Assembly (NCBI RefSeq): GCF_006345805.1
Contig: NC_042999.1
Span: 4,836,001 to 4,900,000 of the forward strand
Direction: 5' to 3'
From: Octopus sinensis
Lineage: Eukaryota
Length of the DNA stretch: 64,000 nucleotides
Below are positions 4,508 to 64,000 of the stretch, one piece after another. Every line of letters starts with the position of its first letter. The stretch's first letter is position 1. The translations under genes and the position numbers were made by a program. The notes beneath the pieces are model-generated. The model was not told where the DNA came from, searched no databases, and was given only the letters and a program-made list of their open reading frames with translations.

Positions 4508-5419
4508 CAAGCGCTGGATTAACCCATTAAGCAAAACAAGCACGTTTTTAGGGCATCAAGGGATGGGGACACCACAGAAACGAAAATGGTTTACGGCACA
4601 AAAGAAATCACGGCAAGACTTCTGCCCCCCCCCCCAAAAAAAAGAACTTTTATTATTTTTTTTTCGACACAAACCCCACCTTTTCGGTTACGGGGAATAC
4701 GAATCTGCAAAAAAATTGGCAAAATTCGACATTTCTAAATTACCACCCTACCCCCATTTCCTTCGTTTTAAACTTTTTTCACACAATTTTTTTTTTCAAA
4801 ATATGCAGAAAAATACGGACATCATGATTCGGACAAAAATTTCAAAACATTTCTGTATTTACGGTTAGGGTTTTAGGGTTAGGGTTGAGGTTTTAGGGTT
4901 AGGGTTGGGGTTAGGGTTTTAAGGTTAAGGTTTTAGGGTTAGTGTTGGGGAAAAAGTTAAAATCGAAGAAGTTGTGGGGGAAAGGTGGGGGGGATTTCAC
5001 AATGCCGATTTTTGGCAATTTTCCGGAACCTCCGTTTCCGAAAACAGGGATTTTTGGAGAAAAAAAATTACAAAAATAAACAAATTCCGGTGAAAATGGG
5101 AGTGGACGGGCGGAAGTATTTTCCGAAATCACTTTAAACTCGCTAAAATAATATTCGTTATGTTTTATCTCTACTAAGTATAGATGCAGAAGTTTTACGT
5201 AAAATTAATTTTAACGATATCATCAAACACTGCAATTAAAAACAAAAACGGAGAAAACTTTTCAAATATAATTAAAATGGAAGCATTCAAAAATAAACAT
5301 TATTTTCTATCTTACCGTGAATTTTGTTGCATTACGAAAAATAAAAAAAAAATTATTTAATGGTTTATTAAACCATTTATTAAACCTTTCAAGTGCTTAG
5401 GGGTTTTAATCCGGCCCTG
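4508..5419. mobile_element. hAT-like MITE with a nested TTAGGG-containing element
   Basis: Imperfect TIRs CAAGCGCTGGATTAA / TTAATCCGGCCCTG; 8-bp TSD GTGTGGTC (4500-4507, 5420-5427); relative at 33847-35034. Confidence 0.75.
4865..4942 (+). repeat. telomere-like TTAGGG variants inside a repeat element (inverted partial copy at ~6750-7060)
   Basis: TTAGGG/TTTTAGGG units; flanking 4611-4865 matches the reverse complement of 6800-7060. Confidence 0.8.
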
Positions 5420-5519: not shown

Positions 5520-6115
5520 GGTTTCAAATTTTGGCACAAGGCCTACAATTTCAGGGAAGGGTGTTGGCCAATTAAATCGACTCCAGTGCTCAGCTGGTAC
5601 TTAATTTTCGACACTGAAAGGACGAAAGGTAAAGTCGACCTCAGCAGAATTTGAACAGAGAACGTGAAGACGGACGAAATACTGCTAAGCATTTTTCCCA
5701 CCGTGCTAACGTTTCTTTTCTACTCTAGGCACAAGGCCCGAAATTTTGGGAGATGGGACCAGTCGAATTAGATCGACCCCAGAACGCAACTGGTCCTTAA
5801 TTTATCGGTCCCGAAAGGATGAAAGGGAAAGTCGACCTCGGCGGAATTTGAACTCAGAACGTAGCGGCAGACGAAATACCTATTTATTTCTTTATTGCCC
5901 ACAAGGGGCTAAACACAGAGGGGACAAACAAGGACAAACAGACGGATTAAGTTGATTATATCGACCCCAGTGCGTAACTGGTCCTTAATTTATCGGCCCC
6001 GAAAGGATGAAAGGCAAAGTCGCCCTCGGCGGAATTTGAACTCAGAACGTAACGGCAGACGGAATATGGCTACGCATTTCGCCCGTCGTGCTAACGTTTC
6101 TGCCAGCTCGCCATC
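5520..6115 (-). mobile_element. SINE A trimer with three different tails
   Basis: Three consecutive body copies; internal junction GACGAAATAC|CTATTT at ~5879. Confidence 0.85.
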
Positions 6116-7569
6116 TCCAGACAAGCAAATATTAGATATAAAGATAGGAGCGGCTCAGACTTAGGAGATACTAGATGCTGAGGACGCCACTAGTGGTTCA
6201 GTCAGGAGATACTAGTGACTCGGAGTGGGGAGACAACGGGCCAGGCGGGAAATAGTAGATGTTAGGAAGTATCAGTGGCTCGGGAAGGTATGTTGAGGAG
6301 ATATTTATGATAAAGAACGTGAAGGATCTAATGTATTCGTTTCTTTCTGCCGGTCATGGGTGTCCTAATTTAAGTTTATTCATCGTTTTTTTTTTTTTTG
6401 TTTTGTTTTCTTTTTAAATCTTGACTCGGCCTTCTTTGTGTGTACCTGAAGACAAAGAAGCCAAGGTTGGCTTATCCACTCCTTGAAAAGTGTACCCGAT
6501 CAGTAATGCTATGTAATAAATATGTTTGTTGAAGCATTGCAATTATAAAAGAAATACGAGCCACCTCTAAGATTAATTACGCGATACCAGGAGCGATACA
6601 TAATCTGATTCGTCGTAACTGTTGTGGAAGTGTTTAAGAGTAACTCTAAGTATTTTTGTCATCTGTGTGTGGTGTGCGTTATACGTTGTTGGATTGGAAG
6701 GCGGCGAGCTGGCAGAAACGTTAGCACGCCGGCCGAAATGCTTAGCCTTTTTTCCCTAACACTAAACCCTAACCCCAAAACCCTAACCCTAAAACCCTAA
6801 CCGTAACTACAGAAATGTTTTGAAATTTTTGTCCGAATCATAATGTTCGTATTTTTCCGCATCTTTTGATAGAAAAAAATCTGAAAAAAGTAAAAAAAAA
6901 ATTAAGGAAAAGGGGGTGGAGGGGGTAATTTAAAAATGCCGATTTTTGCCAAATTTTTTTGCAGATTCGTATTCCCCGTAACCGAAAAGGGGCGGGTTGT
7001 GTCGAAAAAAAATTTTTTAAGGGTGGCTTGGGGCGGGAGATGGATGGAAGTCTTGCCGAGAATTGTTACTAGGATTTAACTGGTACTTTTTTTTATCGAT
7101 CTCGAAAAAAAAAAAATGAGATTCGAACTCAAAGCGCAGAGAACCGCAAAGATTGCTAAAGCAATACAATACAACGATTTAACAACCCAACCAGTTGAAC
7201 TTCAGGAAAGCGAAACAATAAACAAAAATAATGAATGAAAAATAGCTAATAGCCCTGTATAACAATGAAATAATGAAAACGGAAATGAAAATAACCTTTC
7301 CTAAGGGTATTTTCTGTGTAGATCACGAATATAACATCCATTTCTTTCTGTGAGCCTCCAGTTTCTCGTAAATTATCTTACTTATGTTAAATGCACTGAT
7401 GGTTCCGTAGGGATTGAATGCAAACAGGATTGGGTCGAAACTGACAACTCTAAAAGTTATGAACGGATTTTGATATAATTTTAATGGGGTGTTCTTCAGG
7501 AATCGTCAATCTAACCTATGAAAATTATAAAAGTACACTCAATATTTTTTGTTATATGTGTCCAAATCC

Positions 7570-9181: not shown

Positions 9182-9473
9182 TAAGCCTTGTGAGTGGATT
9201 TCGTATATGGAAACTGAAAGAAAACTGTCGTATATATGTGTATATTTGTATGTTGCTACGTTTAATGTCCCCGTAACTTAACGGTTCGGCAAAAAACTCC
9301 GTAGAATAAGTACTAGTCTTACAAAGAATGAATCCTGGAGTCGAACTGTTCGCAGTCACCTGACTGAAACAATAAAAAAAACTATGCCATCTTAATCCGG
9401 AGCAACGCCGGGTATATCTAATAATATCAATGAAAGATCGCTAACAAAGAAAAAAAACTGACGTCTAATATAT

Positions 9474-9871
9474 ATTTCTTTACTACCCACAAGGGGACAA
9501 ACAAGGACAGGCAAAGGGATTAAGTCGATTACATCGACTCCAGAGTGTAACTGGTACTTAATTTATCGATCGCGAAAGGATGACAGGCAAAGTCAACCTC
9601 GGCGGAATTTGAACTCAGAACGTAACGACAGACGAAATACCTATTTCTTTATTACCCACAAGAGGCTAAACACAGAAGGGACAAACAAGGACAGACAGAC
9701 GGATTAAGTCGATTAGATCGACGCAGTACGCAACTGGTACTTAATTTATTGACCCCGAAAGAATGAAAGGCAAAGTCGACCTCGGCGGAATTTGAACTCA
9801 GAATGTAACGACAGACGAAATACCGCTAAGCATTTTGCCCGGCGCGCTAACGTTTCTGCCAGCTCGCCACC
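9474..9871 (-). mobile_element. SINE A head-to-tail dimer
   Basis: One TSD CGTCTAATATAT (9462-9473, 9871-9882) encloses two units joined at 9640/9641. Confidence 0.9.
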
Positions 9872-10230
9872 GTCTAATATATTTAATTATTACCGGGAAA
9901 TATATGACAGTCCCGCAAACCTACACTAAAATTAATACTTTACGTATTCCAGAACTCCGGATTTCCTTATTCTTATCTTCGAAGTCACTTAATAGGTAAG
10001 TACAATTATTTAACCAGGTGGAACTTTTCTTGTTGCTCTGCTGTCGGCAGTGGTTTTTACATAAATGTTTGTAATACTGAGTTGAAATCTGAGCCATTAA
10101 AATCGAGGTTTCAAATCCAGTGCACCGGCAATACCAGGGACCGGTAATATTTCTTAGTAATATTGATTTATACCGGAAACAATATATATGATGAATATAA
10201 TAAAAGATGACAATTTTTTTTTATCTTATA

Positions 10231-12701: not shown

Positions 12702-12921
12702 TTATATGATTAATATATATATATATATATATATATACATACATACATACATACATACATACATACATGACACACACACACACACACACATACATATATT
12801 ATAGTCATGTTTTATATATATATAACGGGAAGTTTTACGAAAATAAACAAAAGACGAAGGTAGGTGGAGTACAAACAAACAATTGTATTAGTATGGCGCT
12901 CAGGAATAGAAATAAAACAAG

Positions 12922-22513: not shown

Positions 22514-22875
22514 CCTATTTCTTTACTACCCACAAGGGGCTAAACACAGAGAGGACAGACAAACGGATTAAGTCGATTATATCGACCCCAGGGCGTAACT
22601 GGTACTTATTTAATCAACCCCAAAAGGATGAAAGGCAAAGTCGACCTCAGTGGAATTTGAACTCAGAACGTAGCGGCAGAGGAAATACCTATTTCTTTAC
22701 TACCCACAAGGGGCTAAACACAGAGAGGACAAACAAGGACAGACTTAATTTATCAGCCCCGAAAGGATGAAAGGCAAAGTCGACCTCGGCGGAATTTGAA
22801 CTCAGAACATAACAGCAGATGAAATACGGCTACGCATTTCGCCCGGCGTGCTAACGTTTCTGCCAGCTCGCCGCC
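22514..22875 (-). mobile_element. SINE A dimer
   Basis: TSD TAAAATAAATA; junction GAAATAC|CTATTTC at ~22688. Confidence 0.85.
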
Positions 22876-23073
22876 GTAAAATAAATATAAATACCAGCCT
22901 GAATTAAATGCTCTTGCAATTATCTTCTCACAACGCAGAATATTAATCATGGCACAGTGACCTGGTTTCCTTCCATATCAGTTATTATTTCGTTTTACAC
23001 AAGTGTTTGGTTAAGTGGTAGAGTATTTTGTGGTCAGGACACTACTTTAACCTTGTGGTGTTCTCACTCACTA

Positions 23074-36060: not shown

Positions 36061-37481
36061 TACAACCTCATTGGTAGAGGTTAGTATTCCTCGGTATACT
36101 AGTGCAGAACCCAACGACATAAGTGATGGTCTGTACCAGCAAATATTAATCCTAGGAGAGTTTGTAGAAGAGTTCAGCTAATTGTTCTGATCTCTCCTAA
36201 TATTTCTTCCAAATTTTGGTACAAGGCCAGCAATTTCAGGGTATGAAGTGAGTCAATTACATGGACCCCATTGTTCAACTGGTACTTGTTTTATCACTCC
36301 CGAAAGAGTAAAAGGTAAAATTGACCTTGTCAGTATTTGAACTCAGAATGAAAAGACAGACGAAATGCCACTAAGCATTTTGCCCGGCATGCCAACGGTT
36401 CTGCCAGCTCGTCTCCTAAATATAATACAAGCAAAACACCCCCCGTCCAATGGACGGTGCTGAGTTGTGAAACATTTAAACCAAATTTTCTCAAAACAAC
36501 TTGTCTGACCGCCCCATAGGCCTCCCCTTTGACTGATTTAACCTAAATTTGAGACACCAGCAAAAGAAGAAATAAAGATAAACTTTTTTTCTATTCCAAA
36601 GAAAAACGATTTTATTCACACAAATATGCAACCGAAGAGTTTAAAGTACCAGTAATGATAAGGCTGTTGACTGGGAGAACACAAACATAGTTTAAACAGT
36701 AAGCTTATCAGGAAAGAAACTTGTCTTTAAGCAGTACAAAAACAACAAAAGATGGAAGGTGCAGTTAGGTACAGGTTGACGGCAGAAAAGCAGGACAAAA
36801 TCGATGCATGCAAATGTGTTAGCTGGAGGTAAATCTAGATGGAAAAGCATAATGATTTTTTGCGCAAACTGCACGTGCATTTTTCTCACGTACGTTTAGT
36901 ATCGATTGCAACAGCTGATGTACTTGCGCGTATAAATGCACTTTCCCACGGCTTTATTGATTGCATTCTCACCTGGAATCGATTTTTGTAATTTTTTCAA
37001 GACTTATACACGCCCTGTTACCATCGGTATCTACATATCGAATTTGAGCACAATCAGATGGAGGATGCCCGAGTTCCTAGAAAACACACACAGACAGATA
37101 GAACGGATTTTATATAATAGATTACTTGGTCTGTGGCGTTTGCAGGAACCGATGGGCTGCGAAAAAATTTATCATTTCACGTCCTTTCTGATACAACACC
37201 CTTTTGAAGCTCAGTTTTGCTAACAGTGTTCAGTTGTTCTCTTCCTTCATTGAGCTGAAACAGGACATTGAGCTCTGATCACAGTCCTCACCATTCTGTA
37301 TTCATGTGTCCATGGTAGTTTCTGTTTTATCATGCTAGTCCAAAATAAAGAATGGTTCCTGTACAGCTTGTCTAGTAAATACCACAGCAAGAACTGGTTG
37401 ATCCAGACATGATTCCGCATGCTTAATAAGTGTTTGATTGTTTTTATGTGGCTGCTAGTGCCGTCAACGAAGAAGACAACT

Positions 37482-38745: not shown

Positions 38746-39249
38746 TCTTTATATATAAAAGAGAGGTTGTGTGCTGTCTGTCTCCTACGATTTAGATTCC
38801 TAACTACTCCCACATTTTGCGGTGCAGTTCAACCAAAACCGGGTATCTTATAGTCGTGATTCATATCGAGCCCTTCTGGGTATTAGCGCGCTTCTACAAT
38901 GAGTCAACGATTTAAAAAAAAATTTACCATCATTTTTTTCCATTTTAATGCATTTTTTCGCTATTATATAAGGGAAGTAACTCTCTAAAAATGTCTACGA
39001 TGAGTCAATGATTTAAAAAAAAATTTACCATAATTTTTTTTCCATTTTAATGCATTTTTTCGCTATTATATAAGGGAAGTAACTCTCTAAAAATGTCTAC
39101 GATGAGTCAACGATTTAAAAAAAATTTACCATCATTTTTTTTTCCATTTTTAATGCATTTTTTTGCTTATTTTTTGGCTATAAATCTCTAAAAATGCTTA
39201 TATAGTTATTTCCCTTACAAATCCGAACAACGCCGGGCGATACTGCTAG
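38746..39249 (+). mobile_element. Helitron with an internal ~101-bp tandem duplication
   Basis: TC...CTAG|T; block GATGAGTCAA..CTCTCTAAAAATGTCTAC repeated. Confidence 0.85.
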
Positions 39250-39746
39250 TCTGTTTTATAAAACTGGAAAGAAAATTCCGACTGTCTCTCTCTACATGGA
39301 GATCTTCATACAATATTAAAGAGAAATACACGTTTATTTATTCGTTTTATTTATTTTAGTTTTAATCAACTCTGGTGAATAGATGGAATCTTGTCGTGGA
39401 TGCAATAAGGAGAATACACAAAACCCGGTCATATCTGGTTTCTTTTCAGCTTTTCTTCTATTTAATGAAATCGATGAGAGAAGAAATAATAAACTTTTGC
39501 TTCGGCGAATAAAAGCAAAGACACGTCTCATCGTTTGCGTTGTTGTTCTCATTGATCTTAATGGAAGCAGCTTTAACACCAGAATTTACGTCACTGCAGA
39601 ACCTCTCGCCCCCTGATATTGTTTATTGTGGTTGTTTTTTGGCCCTAGTTGAATAGAGCTATAACCAAAGACATTCCAGTAATGACTATCACCTAAGTCT
39701 CTATTCATCACGACTTCTCTTCCTGTTATGTGTTATTTTCTAAAAC

Positions 39747-42648: not shown

Positions 42649-43165
42649 TCTATATATATAAAACTGTAGTTGTGTGAGTGTCTGTCTCCTACGATTTAGA
42701 TTCCTAACTACTCCCACATTTTGCGGTGCTGTTTAACCAAATTCGGTTATCTTATAGTCGTGATTAATATCGAGCCCGTCTGGCTATTAGCGCGCGTCTA
42801 CGATGAGTCTACAATTTTAAAAATAATTTAACATAATTTTTTATTCCATTTTAATGCATAATTTTTCGTGTGTCGATGGCGGCGGAGTTGGCGTCCACGC
42901 TCAAACACCTGCACCTGTGTTTACTTCTCCCCCTTCTTCCCTCCCTCGTGAAGCTGTGGGGAAGGGAGTGTAAGGAAATCAACGTCGTAATGCGTTGTCA
43001 AGGAGACCAGCGTTCTTTTAGAACAACGACTTCATGGCTTGAAGACACCAAAACAGAAATGGCTAAGAAAGCCCGAATTGGCATCTATAAAGGAAGTAAC
43101 TCTCTAAAAATGCTTATATAGTTATTTCCCTTACAAACCCGAGCAACGCCGGGCGATACTGCTAG
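42649..43165 (+). mobile_element. Helitron subfamily with a ~220-bp GC-richer insert
   Basis: TC...CTAG|T; near-identical to 45502-46018. Confidence 0.85.
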
Positions 43166-43466
43166 TTCGAGATACGAGTGTGTGTGCGTGCAAACTTGTT
43201 GCATTTTTGTTTTACTTTCCCTCTTCTACAACAATAAAGATAGACAACCATTCGATCTAGGAATGTGTTTTGTGAGCATATTCCATAAAAATTTCCCTTG
43301 TTTGTTTATGTATTTATACACTGAATGACATATCAGGGAAATTATTTGAAAAACATGAATTACCTACATGACATGGTAATTGTTCTTATAATTTGTTCCA
43401 GAACTGCACGAAACACTCAGTCCTTGGTTTCTGTTGCTTCTGATAAATAGTATATGTGTGTGTGTG

Positions 43467-45501: not shown

Positions 45502-46018
45502 TCTATATATATAAAACTGTAGTTGTGTGAGTGTCTGTCCCCTTCGATTTAGATTCCTAACTACTCCCACATTTTGCGGTGCAGTTTAACCAAATTCGGT
45601 TATCTTATAGTCGTGGTTCATATCGAGCCCGTCTGGCTATTAGCGCGCGTCTACGATGAGTCTACGATTTTAAAAATAATTTAACATCATTTTTTATTCC
45701 ATTTTAATGCATAATTTTTCGTGTGTCGATGGCGGCGGAGTTGGCGTCCACGCTCAAACACCTGCACCTGTGTTTGCTTCTCCCCCTTCTTCCCTCCCTC
45801 GTGAAGCTATGGGGAAGGGAGTGTAAGGAAATCAACGTCGTAATGCGTTGTCAAGGAGACCAGCGTTCTTTTAGAACAACGACTTCATGGCTTGAAGACA
45901 CCAAAACAGAAATGGCTAAGAAAGCCCGAATTGGCATCTATAAGGGAAGTAACTCTCTAAAAATGCTTATATAGTTATTTCCCTTACAAACTCGAGCAAC
46001 GCCGGGCGATACTGCTAG
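45502..46018 (+). mobile_element. Helitron subfamily with insert, first of a tandem pair
   Basis: A|TC...CTAG; copy of 42649-43165. Confidence 0.85.
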
Positions 46019-46416
46019 TTATATATAAAAGAGAAGTTGTGTGTCTGTCTCCTAAGATTTAGATTCCTAACTACTTCCACATTTTGCGGTGCAGTTTAAC
46101 CATAACCAAAACCGGGTATCTTATAGTCGTGATTCATATCGAGCCCTTCTGGGTATTAGCGCGCATCTACGATGAGTCTACGATTTAAAAGATAATTTAC
46201 CATCCATTTTCCCCATTTTTAATGCATTTTTGGCATATATAAGGGAAGTAACTCTCTACAATTATATTATTAAATCTCAGAACGTAAAAAGCTACAGTAA
46301 CACCCCTCCCCTTTGTGGTTAGCCATATTGATTTGGCTATTATACTTTACATCTCTAAAAATGTTTATATAGTTATTTCCCTTACAAACCCGAGCAACGC
46401 CGGGCGATACTGCTAG
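46019..46416 (+). mobile_element. Helitron, second of a tandem pair
   Basis: Same subfamily as 42247; CTAG|T end. Confidence 0.85.
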
Positions 46417-48066: not shown

Positions 48067-48481
48067 AGGTTTTGGCTTGTTTACGTCTCCGTAACTTGGC
48101 AGTTCGACAAAAATAAGTACTGGCGTTGATTTGTTTGACTAAAACCCTTTCAAGATGGTGCCCAAGCATAGCTGCAGTCCAATGACGACGAACGATGAAC
48201 GTGTAACCAACAGAATGTTGATCAGTCTTTTTATTAAAATTGCCATTTGTTAAATGGTGACGCTTTAATAATAATAATTTGAGCCTCGTATTTGATCGCA
48301 CCATGGTGGTTTATGATCCCTGAAATGTTCACGGAAAGAAGACTACTGGTCTTTCTGTTTTGGTTGAGAATAGCTGCAATGACCACACCAAATAAAAGTA
48401 TATCTCTCTCAACTTCCAAGTAGTATGGCTCTTTCCCCCCTGGTTCTTTCCCCCTGGTTCTTCAGTATCCTGCCACTTGAA

Positions 48482-48887
48482 GGTGGCGAGCTGGCAGAAA
48501 CGTTAGCACGCCGAGCGAAGTGCTTCGCTGTATTTTGTCTGTCTTTATGTTCTGAGTTCAAATCTGCCGAGGTCGACTTTGCCTTTCATCCTTTCGGGGT
48601 CGATTAAATAAGTACCAGTTACGCACTGGGGTCGATGTAATCGACTTAATCCATTTGTCTGTCCTTGTTTGTCCTCTCTGTGTTTAGCCTCTTGTGGGCA
48701 GTAAAGAAATAAGTATTTTGTCTGTCTTTACGTCCTGAGTTCAAATTCCGCCAAGGTCGACTTTGCCTTTCATCCTTTTGGGGTTGATAAATTAAGTACC
48801 AGTTGCATACTGGATCAATCTAATCGGGTTCCCATCCACCCCCAACCCGAAAAAAATTTCAGGTCTTGTGCCTAGAGTAGAAAAGAA
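48482..48887 (+). mobile_element. SINE A dimer
   Basis: 16-bp TSD TATCCTGCCACTTGAA; junction at ~48713. Confidence 0.9.
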
Positions 48888-49082
48888 TATCCTGCCACTT
48901 GAATTTAAGAAATGCCGTTTCTATCTCTTTTGTTATAATCGGGGGATGAAACTTGCTTGAATGATCATACGCTAGCAGATTCTGAGGAAATTCCATGGTT
49001 ATTTTGGAAATTGTGAGATGGAATTGTATTGTTTTTCTGAAGAATTTGATCATGTGGGCTGGTATAGTGCTTTCCATGCACA

Positions 49083-51290: not shown

Positions 51291-51860
51291 CTAGCAGTAT
51301 CGCCCGGCGTTGCTCGGGTTTGATTCTATCTATTCACCAGAGTTGATTAAAACTAAAATAAATAAAACGAATAAATAAATGTGTATTTCTCTTTAATATT
51401 GTATGAAGATCTCCATGTAGAGAGAGAGGGTCGGTATTTTCTTTCCAGTTTTATAAAATAGACTAGCAGTATCGCCCGGCGTTGCTCGGGTTTGTAAGGG
51501 AAATAACTATATAAGCATTTTTAGGGAGTTATAGCCCAAAAAGTAGCAAAAAATGCCTTAAAAATGGGAAAAAAATTATGGTAATTTTTTTTTTAAATCG
51601 TTGACTCATCGTAGACATTTTTAGAGAGTTACTTCCCTTATATAATAGCGAAAAAATGCATTAAAATGGAAAAAAATGATGGTAAATTTTTTTTTAAATC
51701 GTAGACTCATCGTAGACGCGCGCTAATACCCAGAAGGGCTCGATATGAATCACGACTATAAGATACCCGGTTTTGGTTAAACTGCACCGCAAAATGTGGG
51801 AGTAGATAGGAATCTAAATCGTAGGAGACAGACACACAACTTCTCTTTTATATATAAAGA
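51291..51860 (-). mobile_element. composite Helitron with two 3' termini
   Basis: Body 51463-51860, 141-bp extra segment 51322-51462, second hairpin-CTAG at 51291-51321. Confidence 0.85.
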
Positions 51861-52580
51861 TTTACTTTTTCTTAAAATTTAAGATTGTGTGCAATTGCTT
51901 TTAGAAATATAATTTTTTGGCTTGGATCATATTTTTCCATAACATTTTTTATACGCAGGTTCATATCTCTGTATTTTTTTCTATTTATTTGGTTCTTCTC
52001 CTTGCATAAACTTCTGCAATTTGGTTCTGGCAAACCTTTCCTCCCATTCAATCACATCAGTAAGTCTCCAAATATGTGGATGACTTATATTCACTGTGTT
52101 TTCCAGCACGCTGTTGTAGGCTTCTAAACTATTTGTAGTACGAGCAATCCCCGTCATACATCGATCCCAGACATTCCATACAGGCAATGGAAATGGAGGT
52201 TCATGGCATCGCCTCCTCTGTCCTCGGGTGGTCCTATATAATTATTTTCAAAATAGGATACAATTGACTGTGGAATATCATCATCACCTACAAATTGTTC
52301 ATATCCGTCAACAACATCATCAATCGGCAGGAAGGCAAGGGCTACAAAACACTGCACTTTTAGACTAAAACTGTCATCTTTGAGATATCTGCATCTTAGT
52401 CCTTCTTGCACACATTTTGTCCGAAATGAAACAAGCAGCATGCCAAATTCGATCCAGGAAACCATTCCAGAAATCCGTTATGGGCTGCTTTTTCGAAATC
52501 TATAATTATATTATCAGGTCCCTCATTCTGCATTAATTTATTTATTTGGGCAAAAAGTCTATAATATGTGTCTTCACTTT

Positions 52581-53467
52581 GGTAAATATGAAGAATCTTT
52601 CCCATCGACAAATTAAAAAAAACACATTTTTCTAGGGTAAAACGGATGTGTTGTTTACGAAAAATGTATTAAAAATAGGGCATGGTAACCGTTTCAGAGA
52701 TATTCGCATTTTAGGAAGGTTCTGAGTACAATTTGTGAAGGAAATTGTTTGGAGACCTGGGATGAGGTGTAAATACCTCAAGCAGTATATGGGGAGGTAT
52801 TCTGTTCATTAAATCTATTCCAAATCATGCTGAACGTCTCCATCGCTTTCTTACGGAGAGCAGCAAACTGCATCTGGGACCCTCTTAAAAATGTGGATAT
52901 ATTTGAAACGGTAAGCTTGCTCTATTTTTTGTTCCTTTTTTTCATAATATACAAGTTTATTTTACCGTAGAACGTTAGACTAAGGTAAAGCATGTGCACA
53001 TTGGTTAGGGTTAGTTTAAGCTTTGATTTTGGGTTAGCGTTAAGTGGTATGCATGCATTTTACCTATTTCTTTACTACCCACAAGGGGCTAAACATAGAG
53101 GGGACAAACAAGGACAGACATAGGTATTAAGTTGATACATCGACCCCAGTGCGTAAGTGGTACTTAATTTATCGACCACGAAAGGATGAAAGGCAAAGTC
53201 GACCTCGGCGGAATTTGAACTCAGAACGTAATGGCAGACGAAATACCGCTCAGCATTTCGCCTGACATGCCAACGTTTCTGCCAGCTCGCCGCCTTATGC
53301 ATGCATTTTACCTTCGTCCGTAACCTTCATAAAAATGCGCATATCTCTGAAACAATTAGTTTGCCCTAATTTTTATTGCGTTTTTCATAATCTACATGTC
53401 CATTTTACTCTAGAAAACTGGGTTTTTTTTTTATATTTGTCATTGGGAAAGATTCTTCATATTTACC
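52581..53467. mobile_element. long-TIR MITE inside the MULE remnant, containing SINE A (53065-53294)
   Basis: TIR GGTAAATATGAAGAATCTTTCCCA; SINE TSD TATGCATGCATTTTACC. Confidence 0.8.
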
Positions 53468-54042
53468 CGAAGTGTTTCATCACTTGTAAATATTAGCATT
53501 CTAAACTAAATCTTCCATCCCTGTTGTCAATCTGTAAAAACGTTTTATCCTTGTCAAGATAGGAGTCTTCACTTGGAATGGAAACCCCAACAGATGTAAG
53601 TGGGGTGGCAGGATAGTTGGAATCAACTTGCCTCCAATGTCTAATATTCCTATTAAGCTGTGCAAACGGAGGTATTTGCAACAATGTACAGTCATTTAAA
53701 TTCTGAACTTCACCAGCTATAATTGAACGAGGGGCATCGCAAGATGAAATAGACTTTACTTTATTATTTGAAACTATTATCCTTGCATTTACCTCTGCAG
53801 CAGTTGAAGCGTGATTATGGATCCCAATCTTCTTAAGCTCTTTATAATTTTCATCTGTATGAAGTCTTGCCTTGCACACACGATTTTCACACCTCCAGTA
53901 TATCTACAATCCATCTGCATTCTGCTTATTTCTTGTGTGTATATAATTTTTTTTGATCGACCAGTTGTTTTTCCTTTCTCTGAAGTTATGATCTTGCAGG
54001 TTGTCATGTTGATGGGAAGACGTTTTGAATAAATTTAATTCC

Positions 54043-54282
54043 TTTTTTTCTTTCTTCTTTACTACCCACAAGTTGCTAAACATAGAAGGGACAAACAAGG
54101 ACAGACAAAGGGATAAAGTTGATTACATCGACTCCAGTACGAAACTGGTACTTAATTTATCGACCCCGAAAGGATGAAAGGCAAAGTCAACCTGGGCGGA
54201 ATTTGAACTCAGAACATAACGGCAGACAAAGTACCGCTAAGCATTTTGCCCGGCGTGCTAATGTTTCTGCCAGCTCGCTGCC
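54043..54282 (-). mobile_element. SINE A (putative donor copy)
   Basis: 14-bp TSD ATAAATTTAATTCC (54029-54042, 54285-54298). Confidence 0.9.
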
Positions 54283-54862
54283 TTATAAATTTAATTCCAT
54301 TTGCTTGGAAATCTTCGTTCATAAACTGTTCAGCACAGATACTTGAGAGGGGAGGGTGGGGAAGGTTAAAGAAAGGAAAAAAAAATATCTAAAACTGTCC
54401 AACGACAATTTTAATTCTAAAGTGATGGTTCTAAACTTTTCCTTGAAAATCACATTTCAAACATTTTGGGATGAATTGAGCAGCAACACTATTTATTTAT
54501 ATATTTATTATACCTTTTACATAACCCAAATTTATACATTACATCACACTAACTTTTAAAAGCATCCTTAGTTTTTAACAAGGGTATTATTTGTAATCAT
54601 AGGGACTTATCTAGCAGTCACAAAAAGCGTTATATATTACAATTAACAACACTGGATATTACTACCAGGTATAACTCCTTTGACTAACATCGCTGGTCAA
54701 CTAGTCATTTTCCCCACTTTTTGCTTCATTCATCTAATTGAAGAAACATACACATGTGTGGAGCCCAAAAGAATCACATGTAAGCCTAAAGACTTCAACT
54801 TTTTCCTTTTTCTTTTCATTTCCCCTTTTCTCCTATCTATATTCCTCTGATAAACTCTAAAT

Positions 54863-54941
54863 CATTCTGACGATGTTTGTTAAATGGAATGAAATAAATG
54901 CAAATTTACTTCGAAAGAACAAACTGAAACAGCTGTAAATG
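54863..54941 (+). ncRNA. type I hammerhead ribozyme (CUGACGA)
   Basis: CATT-CTGACGA-T-GTTTGTT..AACAAAC-T-GAAA-CAGCTG-TA-AATG. Confidence 0.7.
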
Positions 54942-55029
54942 TTCTTGAACTACAATTAAACTATGACCTTTTAATACCAGTGATCAACTTCTAATTGTTA
55001 AATGTTGATCCATTTCTTTTCTTATCTGA

Positions 55030-55099
<70 letters not shown>

Positions 55100-55689
55100 G
55101 CGATGGGCTTCTTCAGTTTCTGTCTATCAAATCCACTCACAAGGCTTTGATCGGCCTGAGGCTATAGGAGGTGCCAACCTGGAACCATGTGGTTGGGAAG
55201 CAAGCTACTTACCACACAGCCACCCCTGCACCTATATATCATCATCATCATCATTTAATGTCTGTTTTTCATGCTGGCATGGGTTGGATGGCTTGACAGG
55301 AGCTGGCCTGGCAGAAGATTGTACCAGGTTTCAGTGTCTGTTTTGTCATGGTTCTTATGACTGGATGCCTTCCTGAAACCAGCTGCTCCACAGTGTGGGT
55401 TGAGGGCTTTCTATGTGCCAGGCAAGGTCAGTTTTGGCATGGGTTTTACAGCTAGATGCCCTTCCACACACCAACCACTTTACAGTTGACAGGGTCACCG
55501 AGTAACTTGCAAAAGAAAGAACCTTTGAGAGGGGAGGGGCCATTGGAGGAGGTGACCTTGTGCTAGAGGATGAAAGGTGTGACAGAGAGACAGAAATAGG
55601 TAACCAGATACATAGTTGCCTAGTCAGAGAATGAGGAATGTGGAATGAAACAGGTGTGTTGGTGTAGAGAAGGTACATGGATAACCAGT

Positions 55690-56095
55690 CAAAGGAGAGA
55701 ACAAGACAGAGAAAGAGAGGAAGATGGAGAGAGAGAGAGGAAGAGGGAGAGAGAGAGAGGAAGAGGGAGAGAGAGAGAGAGAGTTGGGAAAAGGGTGTAG
55801 AGGAGAAGGGGGAAAGAAAGAAAGCAGGAAGAGGGAGTGGGAAAGAGGGGGAAAAGAGAGTGAGTGAGAGAAAGGAGGATGCTGGATGAGAAAAGGAGTG
55901 AGGACAAGAGAGGTGGGAGAAAGGGAAAGGAGAAAAGGAGAGGGAGAGAAAGGTACAAAGAGAGGGAGTTAGAGTCAGAGAAAGAGAGAGAGAGATTGTG
56001 TGAAAGGAAGAGAGCAAGAGAAAAAGGTGGGGGAAGTGAAAGGAAAGAGGAAAAGAAAGAGTGAGAGAGAAAGAGTAAGAGAGAGAGAGAGAGCA
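55690..56095. repeat. GA-rich low-complexity tract
   Basis: Direct reading. Confidence 0.9.
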
Positions 56096-56734
56096 GTGTG
56101 AGTAGGCTGAAGTAATAAAGGAATTTATTGTGGAATTCTAATCCAAATCGTCTGACATATTTTTTTCCCCTTTTTTCCTTCCCAAAAGTGACCACCATTT
56201 TAATTTCCGATGTAATGTTTGCTAAGATCTCAAGATCTCATAATCTTCAGCCTTTTCTACTCAATGACGTCAAATGCAATCAATAGATTTACTTTTCACC
56301 TGCCAACTTCACTCATTTTTTTGTTTTGTTTTATTTTCCTAACCTTCTCTTTCCCCCATTTTCTTTTCTTTTTCTCATTCTCTCGTTTCTTCATATTTGT
56401 TCTTTCTTGTTCTCAGATCTGAAGACGTGATTCTTTCGTTTTTAGTTTATGTTTCTCTATTGACACAAATTCTTGAACAAACAGTCAAAAGAATTGATAA
56501 GTATATAAAAACATATAACTCGTGCAGGATCAGTTAAATAAATAAAACAATGATAAATAAAGTAAAATGATGATAATTACTGGTATTGTTTATTTTTAAA
56601 ACAATTGTTATAGGTTCTAAGGAAATAAATTGTGATATACAAGGCATTCTCAAGAATTTTCCATTTTTTTGTGTCTCTCGTTGTTTACATATTTCATGTT
56701 GTTTGCACAGTTGGTGACATCCTGTACCCGTATA

Positions 56735-56800
<66 letters not shown>

Positions 56801-56849
56801 TCATCACCATCATATATATTTATTATTGTGTGTGTGTGTATATATATCT

Positions 56850-57215
56850 GAGCATTAGGTTTGTCAGTTTCTATCCAGTCTCCTCAGCTGATGTTTGTGC
56901 CGGATGTGACTTTGCAGTCCAAGTCGGCGGCAAAAGAGTCATGGGCAGAATTCACACAGGATGGTCAGTGTGGGTCGAGGATGTTGAAGACGCTCCATTC
57001 TTCTCCTGTGCTTTACCTCCTCATTCTGTTGTCTGTTCTGCTCGAAGTAGCTGGCTCCATTGCAGATAGAAGTCCTCCAGGCTGTCCTATCCATGGCAAT
57101 CTGTTCCCATGAGGATGGCTGGATGTTAGTTTGAGCAAGGGTCTGTTTGAGCTGATCTTTAAAATGGAATTTTAGACCTCCTCTGGGTCGTGTTCCAATT
57201 GCAAGTTCTCCATAG
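56850..57215 (-). pseudogene. RTE/BovB-like LINE ORF C-terminus
   Basis: YGELAIGTRPRGG..FKDQLK..WEQIAMDRTAWR..CEFCP*..GLQSHIRHKH. Confidence 0.85.
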
Positions 57216-57333
57216 ATATGTATACATGTATTTCTGTATACATATCTTGGAGCCTGGTGCAGACATTTGGTTCGCCAGTCCTCAGTCAAATCGTCCAACC
57301 CATGCTAGAATGGAAGGCGGACGTTAAATGAAG

Positions 57334-57459
57334 ATGATGATGATAGTGGTGATGATGATGATAATGATGATGATGGTGATGATGATGATGATGGTGGTGA
57401 TGATGATGATGATGATGATGATGGTGATGATGGTGGTGATGGTGGTGATGATGATGATG
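57334..57459. repeat. expanded (GAT/GGT)n tail of a family C copy
   Basis: Follows GGACGTTAAA. Confidence 0.9.
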
Positions 57460-58874
57460 TGTGTCTCCACATCATTCCATCTATACATATCTCACTATTC
57501 ACCAATCATGTTGACTAATTACTCTCCTTCACTGACTTAGTAATTAATTAATCCAAACAATGCCAGAAACTTAAAGGTTGTTTCCATATTGATTGTCATG
57601 GTTCAAATATCCTGTAGGATGTGATTCGTTTTCAATCATATTGCTGAGTTTTAATTATGTCCTCATCTTCTACGATTCTCTCAGCCGCTTGTCGTCTGAC
57701 AGACTCGGCCATTTCTTCACCATATATAAATAATCATGAAATAAACTTCTAGACATTCCTCCCATTTCATCTTATTGTCAAATTGCAATCAACAGCTAAT
57801 GCTGATTATTGCTGCTATCCTTCTTTCGCTTTCCACTTGCTTTAAACAGAAGATTACCAGAATCTTATATATTTATCTATTTTCATTCTCTTCACTATTT
57901 GGCTATCAATAAACAACCTCAAGCTTCGAAATCAATCTAATTTTTTCTATAAGACATATTGATCACTTGTAGGCAAGGTCAATGTAGCAGCAATACCCCC
58001 AGATGAAATAGAGCACTGGGTCCTGTAGTATTATATATTTATTTGTTGTTTTTTTTTTTGTCGAACAAATCAACCCTAGGACTTATTCTTTCTAAGCCTA
58101 GTATTTATTGCTAAGTTATGAGGACGTAAACACACCAACATCAGTTGATGGTGGAGGTACAAAACCACACACAAAAATATATATATATGACAGGCTTCTC
58201 TCAGTTTCCATCTGCCGAATCCTCTCACAAAGCTTTGGTCAGCCTGAAACTATAATAGAAGACACTTGCCCAAGGTGCCACACAGTGGGATTGAACCTGG
58301 AACCATGTGGCTGGGAAGCAAGCTTCTTACCACACAGCCACTCCTTTTTTTGTTAATACTTATCTGCAATAAACTGCTTAACTTCCTCAATACACCAAAT
58401 ATCTAAGTTTTTTTTCCATGCAATTCCTAATAATAGGATTTTTTAAACATTGAATGGCTAAGAGAGTCCAGTAGAGTAAAAGTGGAACCAAAGGGGATCA
58501 TAGGTAAAAAATAATGTTTAAGAACCACTGATATAGATTATGGTTATACTGGAATTTGATCTGCAAGAAAAGAATTGTGCTGAGTGCAATGGATAATTCA
58601 CATATCTTGACTTTGTTTCGTCATACATTTTGATGAGGTGTGTGAATTATTGTTATATTTATTTTTCCACATCAAATTCTGGCATAATTGCACCATATAA
58701 AAATGTATTTGTTGAAAAGCTCATTTTTCAGAAAGTTATGAGGAAACAAAGATGGTGTGGGGGTACATTTCTGTAGTTATATCACATAACCAAATGGTTA
58801 AGAATTTGGCTTTGCAACCTCATGGTTCTGTGTCCAATACCTCTGTGACATGCTGGACAAATGTCGTTGATTAA

Positions 58875-59210
58875 GGCGGCGAGCTGGCAGAAACGTTAGC
58901 ATGCCGGGCGAAATGTCCAGCGGTATTTCGTCTGCCGTTACGTTCTGAGTTCAAATTCTGCTGAGGTCAACTTTGCCTTTCATCCTTTCGGGGTCAGTAA
59001 ATTAAGTACCAGTTACGCACTGGGGTCGATGTAATCGACTTTATCCCCTTGTCTGTCCTTGTTTGTCCCTTCTATGTTTAGCAACTTGTGGGTAGTAAAG
59101 AAGAAAGAAAAAAAGGAATTAAATTTATTCAAAATGTCTTCATCATCAACATGACTACCTGCAAGATCATAACTTCAGAGAAAGTCACCCCTTGAGGGTA
59201 ATAAAGAAAT
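58875..59210 (+). mobile_element. SINE A with 70-bp transduced flank and a second tail
   Basis: TSD AAATGTCRTTGWTTA; 59115-59184 matches the reverse complement of 53974-54042. Confidence 0.85.
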
Positions 59211-59544
59211 AAATGTCATTGTTTAGGCCTAGGGTTAACCCATACTTTCTGAGTGAAACTGGGTTGATGGGAGCCATATATAAGCTCATCAGCTAGATTG
59301 TACCTGTGATTTAAGTGGCACACCTTGTCACACAGTGTATTATGTTGATAACATTAATTGTACTTGTGTCTATCAAGGCCACTCTCCTGATGATGTGCTG
59401 ATACATAGCTGCTGTTGCTGGGTTGTATTCATGTAATTATTTATATAATCATCATCATCATCATCATCATCGTTTAGCGTTCGTTTTCCATGCTAGCATG
59501 GGTTAAATATTCTATGTAATGAAATCAAAAATCAAAATCAAATT

Positions 59545-60926: not shown

Positions 60927-61293
60927 TATTGATAAAATAATTAATTTGCTTTCTTTAAAAAACTGCCAAACATTTATTTTGTACCAGAAAATATATTTTG
61001 ATTCTATTTAAAATGCAGAGCAGATGGTGTATACATTGCCGTAAAAGCTCGTATGTATTTCATAATTTATTACTTGTCATTGTCGTCATCATCATCATGT
61101 CCACTTTTCTATCATTCTCATGTGGGTCGGACAGGTTTGTTGAGGCAAGTTTTCTGTGACTGGATGCCCCTCCTGTCATTAACCCTCGTCTGTTTCCAAG
61201 CAAGGTGATATTTTTCTCTGGTCAGAAATATTTTTCCTGGAAGACTAAAAATGAGCGACATCACTTGTAGGATGGTTACATTCACTTACAAAA

Positions 61294-62812: not shown

Positions 62813-63067
62813 CCGTCCCCATCATTTAACTTTGTCTTTCATGCTGGCATGGATTGGACAATTTGACAGGAGCTGGCAAGCCGGTGGGGCTGCACCAGGC
62901 TCTAGTCGTCTTTTGGCATGGTTTCTATGGCTGAATGCCCTTCCTAATGCCAACCACTTTCCAGAATGTACTCAGTATGTTTATGTAGCAGCAACATGAG
63001 TGCATTTTATGTGCATTTGTCATGTGGTGCTGGCACATAACATGGCTGTTTTATAAGGCATCTGCAT

Positions 63068-63631
63068 AGGTGCTTTTTACATGGTGCGGGCCCAGGTGCT
63101 TTTTACATGGTGCGGGCCCAGGTGCTTTTTACATGGTGCGGGCCCAGGTGCTTTTTACATGGTGCGGGCCCAGGTGCTTTTTACATGGTACGGGCCCAGG
63201 TGCTTTTTACATGGTGCAGGCCCAGGTGCTTTTTACATGGTGCGGGCCCAGGTGCTTTTTACATGGTGCGGGCCCAGGTGCTTTTTACATGGTGTGGGCC
63301 CAGGTGCTTTTTACATGGTGCGGGCCCAGGTGCTTTTTACATGGTGCAGGCCCAGGTGCTTTTTACATGGTGTGGGCCCAGGTGCTTTTTACATGGTGCG
63401 GGCCCAGGTGCTTTTTACATGGTGTGGGCCCAGGTGCTTTTTACATGGTGCGGGCCCAGGTGCTTTTTACATGGTGTGGGCCCAGGTGCTTTTTACATGG
63501 TGCGGGCCCAGGTGCTTTTTACATGGTGCAGGCCCAGGTGCTTTTTACATGGTGCGGGCCCAGGTGCTTTTTACATCGTGCCTGCCCAGGTGCTTTTTAC
63601 ATCGTGCCTGCCCAGGTGCTTTTTACATGGC
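63068..63631. repeat. 26-bp minisatellite, ~21.5 copies
   Basis: Unit GGTGCTTTTTACATGGTGCGGGCCCA, at the end of a family C copy. Confidence 0.95.
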
Positions 63632-64000
63632 ATCTCATGGCAATATAGTGACATTACTCTGCTATGTTACTGCTAGAATTTGAAATCCTTTAGTATTTGT
63701 GAAACATTCATCATTTTAATGAACAGTCATAGAAAGGGAACCACTGTAAGATATTTAGTAACTTTAATTACTTACATCAATAACGTTGATTGATCTGTTG
63801 AGTGAAGTCTCGACTGGATTGCAGTTTGTGGATGTTAGAGAAGTAAAAGGGGAATTGATCAACAGATATAGGTTTAGTTTAGGGATCTCAACACGTCTAT
63901 AGGGTGTCAGGAACCTCGCATGAATACTTGAAAAGAGTGAACTCCAACAAAGGTACCCATGGGGCAGAAGATAATAGTATTAAACTGAGGTACCCATGGG

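Follow-up and report, generated by a model that had tools for sequence, protein, structure and literature searches.

A SINE in Octopus sinensis carrying the 3' end and flank of an inverted neighbour: a likely repair scar that resembles 3' transduction

Octopus genomes hold tRNA-derived short interspersed elements (SINEs) such as OK, OR1 and OR2 (tRNA-Core, tRNA-Deu), and a family which resembles them in its tRNA-type head, shared core, three alternative tails and high copy density is found in the stretch analysed here, 64,000 nucleotides of Octopus sinensis (contig NC_042999.1, positions 4,836,001 to 4,900,000; hereafter the window), in which one copy, starting at 58874, ends with sequence of a neighbouring copy and of the DNA next to that neighbour. 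The whole analysis, including the searches for copies of the donor and of the transferred flank, covers this 64-kb window. SINEs make up about 40% of octopus transposable elements (PMC8967140), and variable tails on a common core are a known superfamily trait, for example in MetaSINE (PMC4824008).

In 3' transduction by LINE-1 and SVA elements, two tails are present, the 3' target site duplication (TSD) of the source lies inside the carried segment and an outer TSD surrounds the whole (PMC4859970), all of which is found at the octopus locus. It is unlike 3' transduction in that the upstream element is not a copy of the source, with a residual doubt from CpG decay that is weighed below, in that, at the last tail, a SINE hairpin derived from another copy stands in place of a homopolymer, in that the source is adjacent, and in that the carried segment ends at no terminator of RNA polymerase III (Pol III), the first run of four or more T following 434 bp further on (polyadenylation signals of RNA polymerase II were not searched). 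Since both the source-derived body and the transcript end fail, the locus is not classed as 3' transduction. Chimeras of the U6/LINE-1 type, made by template switching of reverse transcriptase (RT), join same-sense parts of different templates within one TSD (10.1101/2025.02.02.635956), and the module exchange of SINEs likewise brings parts of different templates into one TSD (PMC4758252), as here; unlike those chimeras, the octopus locus would require a double switch, with one return in register, and its foreign template would be a local genomic neighbour.

In synthesis-dependent strand annealing completed by end joining (SDSA+EJ), in one-sided invasion and in patches made by microhomology-mediated break-induced replication (MMBIR), one end copies a homologous template and overshoots, and the other junction is end-joined with few added bases (PMC2895639, PMC9299229, PMC7407515). 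The octopus locus has both the in-register and the non-homologous junction, but its template is an inverted SINE, about 12% diverged and 4.6 kb off, not a sister chromatid or a construct, and the event is a fossil known from sequence alone. Gap repair in the fly germline consists mostly of incomplete synthesis followed by end joining, with junction insertions being common (PMC2895639), one-sided invasion in plants is an SDSA-type model (PMC9299229), and homeologous copies serve appreciably often as template for the repair of breaks in LINEs, as set out in a review of non-allelic repair between repeats (PMC7407515). No such composite in an octopus SINE was found in the titles and abstract openings of the literature, in a search that subscription papers mostly fell outside.

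The element at 58874 (the recipient) is very probably a three-part mosaic, in which a non-donor body and a non-donor tail enclose a 143-bp patch of a second SINE (the donor). The recipient SINE starts at 58874-58875 on the plus strand, and the donor (54043-54284, minus strand) consists of a tRNA-type head, a core, a tail with broken hairpin and an expanded A-rich end. An earlier note, which had described the two as parent and daughter about 4.6 kb apart, was right about the distance (4589 bp) and had not mentioned that the pair is inverted, head-to-head. The 15-bp outer TSD (58859-58873 and 59211-59225) encloses the whole composite, as claimed there, with copies that are not exact but agree at 13 of 15 positions; its score was equalled at 16 of 3000 random positions. 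Within it, segment A (58874-59037, plus strand) is the recipient 5' body, non-donor by the comparison of derived sites given below, and passes by in-register homology into donor-type sequence within 59025-59041 (plus strand; 59038-59041 if the CpG site 59037 is counted), an interval which coincides with a perfect 6-bp hairpin (59025-59039) and with the point at which the tail types diverge. Segment B1 (59042-59114, plus strand) is a donor-type SINE 3' end with an A-rich tail, and segment B2 (59115-59184, plus strand) is a 70-bp tag made up of the donor TSD (59115-59128) and of flank from a MULE transposase relic (59129-59184). Three junction bases, TCA (59185-59187, plus strand), which belong neither to the donor's continuation nor to the usual tail and which the earlier note had passed over, lead to segment C (59188-59210, plus strand), a second tail whose hairpin is intact and which has non-donor alleles and one change in the loop; between B and C no homology is present beside these extra bases. 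Segments A and C together with the outer TSD form one ordinary SINE of which about 45 bp before the hairpin are replaced, and segment C is more simply read as the resident copy's own tail than as a re-added one.

That the copy at 54043-54284 is the source of the recipient's 3' end and of the tag, as had been proposed, is borne out. The tag is present at two places in the window only, the donor and the recipient. It differs from its donor counterpart (53974-54042, 69 bp) by three mismatches and one indel, and the whole patch (59042-59184) differs at 5 of about 143 columns from the copied tract 53974-54115 (minus strand), which comprises the last ~73 bp of the donor SINE, its TSD and 55 bp of flank. 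The 14-bp TSD contained in this tract, the donor's 3' copy (54029-54042), is identical to the 5' copy at 54285-54298, which fixes the donor locus as the origin of the tag. Copying in the reverse direction, from recipient to donor, is rejected because the tag TSD has this partner and because the flank runs on into the MULE relic. Similarity of the two loci stops at the TSD and the tag; with alignment scores of 63 and 41 for 500 bp of flank, against shuffled means of 66 and 41, the flanks are unrelated, and segmental duplication, named beforehand as an outcome that would overturn the proposal, is excluded. An assembly artefact is unlikely because the patch differs from the donor at those 5 columns. 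The patch has neither an intron nor an added poly(A) that would betray an RNA stage, nor does it hold a direct sign of a DNA stage, and the tag ends in a purine-rich stretch. The donor tail has lost its hairpin and no longer folds, that of the second tail folds, and the non-donor alleles of the latter place its origin in a different copy, all in agreement with the earlier note. A template for the TCA was looked for and discarded: the plus strand of the donor holds AAAGTCA at 54183, yet by chance such a template would exist for 12-14 of the 64 trimers.

The split between body and 3' end was measured in an alignment of 15 units with this tail type, in which a site was classed if donor or recipient differs there from the majority state of the remaining 13. 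The two have 0 shared and 21 discordant derived sites between the 5' end and 59037, and from 59042 onward 7 shared and 1 discordant. The best split reaches a Fisher p of 5e-6, is attained in 0 of 5000 permutations and is the strongest among all 105 pairs, the next best having p 0.0026. In the 5' part, the two are 87.4% identical, where 85 control pairs of the family average 88.3 +/- 2.0%, and none of the recipient's 14 partners is less similar to it than the donor; in the 3' part, identity is 98.4% compared with a mean of 90.5%, one control pair being at 100%. The 5' two-thirds of the pair, a point overlooked before, are no more alike than unrelated family members. Split trees of the 9 full-length units, which leave out the 6 truncated or deleted ones among the 15, group the pair by the 3' part only (support 99), with the 5' tree unresolved. 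Donor and recipient both carry a CAAC tail variant and the same A-rich end. The private variants claimed for the pair hold for three body variants and the tail end (columns 171, 217, 236-237), seen in 0 of the 13 other units; the remaining common variants occur in 1-5 of the 13. A CCCAGG transversion, found in the donor and at 61292 only (2 of 19 matches), and a donor T allele, seen with units of the GCGTAC-type haplotype, are absent from the recipient, and these two markers were likely inherited by the donor and not acquired recently. Since the 5' part shares 0 of 21 derived sites and the 3' part 7 of 8, the recipient is very probably not a daughter of the donor copy. A single template switch to donor RNA, as the earlier note had envisaged, should yield a donor body up to the 5' end, which is not seen; because the 5' 164 bp are not donor-derived, a route through RNA needs a second switch back.

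We consider it probable that the mosaic arose by DNA repair, the broken end of a resident SINE having copied its neighbour and been end-joined to its own tail, either by SDSA with end joining or by a template switch at a replication fork; a resident element, a break and a DNA template are what we infer. An ordinary SINE would have inserted at 58874 and made the 15-bp TSD, and after this step reverse transcription would not be required. A break or stalled fork just 5' of the tail hairpin would then have freed a plus-strand 3' end, which could anneal in register to the neighbour's plus strand, by fold-back or by D-loop (displacement loop) invasion, because the freed end reads SINE-sense and the neighbour is inverted on the same arm. 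Copying would have given about 45 bp of the resident 3' body the donor alleles that it now has, and would have passed the donor tail, the TSD and 56 bp of MULE flank before the new strand was released and end-joined, with three extra bases, to the end that kept the resident tail and TSD. Aborted SDSA with end joining and a fork template switch of the MMBIR type are indistinguishable here. The junctions are asymmetric, one homologous and in register, the other non-homologous with three added bases, and such a pair fits one-ended homologous copying followed by end joining. The proximity of the donor weighs most: the probability that a random donor lies within 5 kb is 1e-4 to 4e-6 for assumed genome sizes of 0.1-2.5 Gb, whereas homology-driven repair accounts for the use of this donor as well as for the copying past its end into the flank. 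The outer TSD has decayed at 2 of 15 positions compared with 1 of 126 in 9 clear TSDs (p 0.03), a count that leaves out the loci at 12704 (microsatellite), 6116 and 33537 (doubtful), and 40921 and 36421 (none found).

Several points speak against repair. The age difference of the TSD falls to p 0.10 when the doubtful TSD at 6116 is added, one of the two outer TSD mismatches is a CpG change, and the divergence of TSD and patch does not differ significantly (p 0.10-0.13); the pre-existence of the recipient, argued from parsimony and a weak TSD signal, is suggestive only. At the second junction, between B and C, no microhomology was found. The crossover falls on a perfect hairpin at the tail-swap point of the family, where an RT pause is also expected. 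Recombination declines with heterology (PMC7407515), and the donor and recipient SINEs are about 12% diverged. Finally, the family holds other mosaics and in-register multimers which may be RNA-made.

RNA-templated routes are, taken together, unlikely, and they need local nascent RNA because the donor is close by. One of them, in itself rather improbable, is a single retrotransposition with two RT switches, in which the enzyme primes on the intact tail of an RNA (X), jumps with the addition of three bases into the read-through RNA of the defective neighbour, probably nascent and tethered, and, at the core hairpin, goes back in register to RNA X. The single TSD around all parts and a crossover placed where the family exchanges tails, on a perfect hairpin, agree with it, read-through RNA of the donor is plausible because no run of four or more T occurs for 434 bp past the tag end and because the donor lies in sense at the MULE start, and RT switching is the proposed route of SINE module exchange (PMC4758252) and has been proposed for LINE-1 chimeras (10.1101/2025.02.02.635956). 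It demands, however, not only two switches but also that the fresh copy insert as close as 4.6 kb to the donor and that the jump hit, by accident, a point 70 nt behind a homologous SINE. In addition, the tag ends without a Pol III terminator, and most TSDs look younger than the outer one (p 0.03-0.10). If this route were true, the retrotransposition complex would routinely use local transcripts as templates, and a borrowed tail could let defective SINEs send out their sequence and flank.

A resident SINE that was nicked or broken at its tail could alternatively have been patched by reverse transcription of donor read-through RNA, as a self-insertion or as RNA-templated repair, resolved in register by homology. 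This yields the same three-part structure, the tag end is purine-rich, and in-register multimers exist at 4 loci of the window, 2 of the 4 with TSD-like sharing over 18-20 bp; yet those multimers restart at about body position 50 and not at the hairpin and carry no unique flank, the inner junction lacks a duplication and about 45 bp of resident sequence are replaced, and proximity is left unexplained unless the RNA was used in cis. We hold this patching by RNA to be slightly less probable still than the two-switch insertion.

Slightly lower again in probability stands the proposal of the earlier note, by which the whole element at 58874 would be the donor's daughter, made by one switch from an intact tail; the 5' differences would then have to be younger, due to CpG decay or to gene conversion by some third copy. 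CpG sites occupy 36 of 167 positions in the 5' part but 2 of 61 in the 3' part, which counts against the mosaic, and decay as a fake source of the split was therefore tested. With non-CpG sites alone, 20 of 20000 permutations reach the split, and 202 of 20000 if adjacent changes are merged; of the donor-derived non-CpG alleles, the recipient kept 0 of 5 in the 5' part and 7 of 7 in the 3' part (p 0.0013). CpG-type transitions make up 12 of the 21 differences in the 5' part. Under the CpG excess measured in the family, 2.3-4-fold, a copy of the whole donor gives the observed 5' difference count with P 5e-4 or lower. Also unfavourable to the mosaic, an assumed 10-fold excess raises this to P 0.003-0.11 (0.05-0.11 with a higher patch rate, where the total is compatible), the count of non-CpG differences alone is only mildly high (P 0.01-0.17), and weighting by the positions of recurrent family variants weakens the sharing test to P 0.005-0.1. 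Against a whole donor copy stands, besides the measured excess, that the donor's 5' 167 bp must have equalled the family majority at the time of copying, while its last 61 bp already held 7 variants, and that the donor must later have gained alleles common to other subfamily members; proximity again is left unexplained.

A dispersed composite, a subfamily of SINE plus MULE flank, or a patch from a third locus such as another MULE copy already holding this SINE, with the closeness of the donor a coincidence, is very improbable: the MULE has a relative in Octopus bimaculoides, and MULE starts are therefore probably multi-copy, and the 5 differences in about 143 columns between patch and donor exceed those of typical TSD pairs (1 of 126), though not significantly (p 0.22), but the tag occurs at just 2 places in 64 kb, 1 of the 20 tail-motif matches in the window is a bare tail behind unique sequence, and a neighbour by chance is improbable.

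Repair from the inverted neighbour being preferred, the locus is likely a repair scar that mimics parent-to-daughter retrotransposition and not a new way of jumping, and likely one more case of a repair outcome already known. The structure passes the visual tests of 3' transduction, yet the tagged source did not supply its body. Since source elements are assigned by means of flank tags, repair-made mimics would lead to false parents where genomes are dense in SINEs. A cheap safeguard is to follow allele sharing over the full length of the body and to note the distance and orientation of the donor. A further suggestion from the locus is that inverted SINEs lying close together trade sequence with each other and carry unique flank over short distances. 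Being one fossil of such an outcome, the locus has modest weight, which would rise if many such patches were present genome-wide or if patches were RNA-made. Segments with a single partner in the window, candidates for local templated copying, number 22 with this patch included; of the 21 others, one (42649 with 45502) was aligned and rejected, being two copies of a dispersed repeat.

The donor SINE sits, in sense, at the likely start of a decayed FLYWCH-MULE transposase gene (51875-54007, minus strand), a relic with frameshifts, stops and an insertion. Its likely first codons (MTTCKIITSEKG), from a presumed start codon, fall inside the tag. The relic matches the Pfam domains FLYWCH (E=5e-4, below the curated cut-off) and MULE (E=2e-8), and a fragment of it is 78% identical to a MULE protein of O. 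bimaculoides. Inverted repeats of about 145 bp (52581-52721 and 53322-53467, 81.5% identical), which enclose a SINE (53065-53297) and telomere-like GGGTTA repeats, interrupt the relic at a place where about 50 codons are missing in comparison with the O. bimaculoides protein.

In the window, which is rich in repeats, 18 loci in 64 kb, one of them weak, match the element 58860-59230 by BLAST. The family, with three alternative tails on a common core, has the features of tRNA-derived SINEs: box-like motifs, dispersed copies with TSDs and a structured 3' tail. A-box-like and B-box-like motifs lie at positions 12-13 and 76-77 in donor and recipient SINE alike, by the patterns of the internal Pol III boxes, and clear TSDs of 8-18 bp flank 9 other SINE loci among 16 entries tested. 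ARAGORN found 0 tRNAs in the window, and Rfam gave no tRNA match; all that its scan returned were matches of microsatellites to miRNA models, with scores under the gathering thresholds. No match to a named SINE family was found by motif searches of the available text of two papers (PMC4824008, PMC4758252), one supplementary file of each lying outside the search.

The tails, exemplified for the three types at 59188-59210, 48855-48882, 5523-5550 and 36208-36235, keep a CTTGT loop, and their stem flips from CCC/GGG to GGC/GCC, a compensatory change between tail types. Across these types, 89.6% of cells are paired and 9 cells are changed on both sides, a covariation score which is reached in 0 of 500 shuffles, a control inflated by the relatedness of the copies, and which beats all slid controls. 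By folding energy alone, intact tail hairpins are no better than shuffles (z about -0.5). The tail hairpin is likely the recognition element for the RT of a partner LINE. The perfect 6-bp hairpin in the SINE core, at the crossover interval and tail-type divergence point, lies at 59025-59039 in the recipient and at 54118-54132 in the donor, where it has one CpG-type mismatch; its folding energy, too, is no better than that of shuffles.

In-register SINE multimers are found at 9470-9873 (minus strand), 22514-22877 (minus), 48479-48890 (plus) and 5522-6116 (minus), each with a full unit and its tail, followed by a unit that restarts at about position 50 of the body. Two of the four have non-consensus bases common to their two units over the first 18-20 bp past the restart, similar to a TSD, which suggests self-insertion resolved by homology. 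The multimer at 5.5-6.1 kb consists of three units with three tail types, the first two having variants in common far from the junction. Directly after the tail, GGT begins the TSDs or 3' junctions at 53065, 38440 and 22516 and most multimer restarts, possibly as a target preference or as microhomology between tail and target.

Among the other repeats of the window, a young dispersed repeat of about 520 bp (42649-43167, 45502-46020, 38775-39390 and 51322-51834) reaches 98% identity between copies, has a CTAG end and is often in tandem; by its end pattern, it may be Helitron-like. An inverted pair of about 255 bp (86%), at 4657-4910 and 6754-7012, begins in each copy with CCCTAA-like repeats, and its right copy (6754-7012) truncates a SINE head (6698-6745). 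A tandem array of 26-bp units, about 95% identical to one another, extends over 63040-63680.

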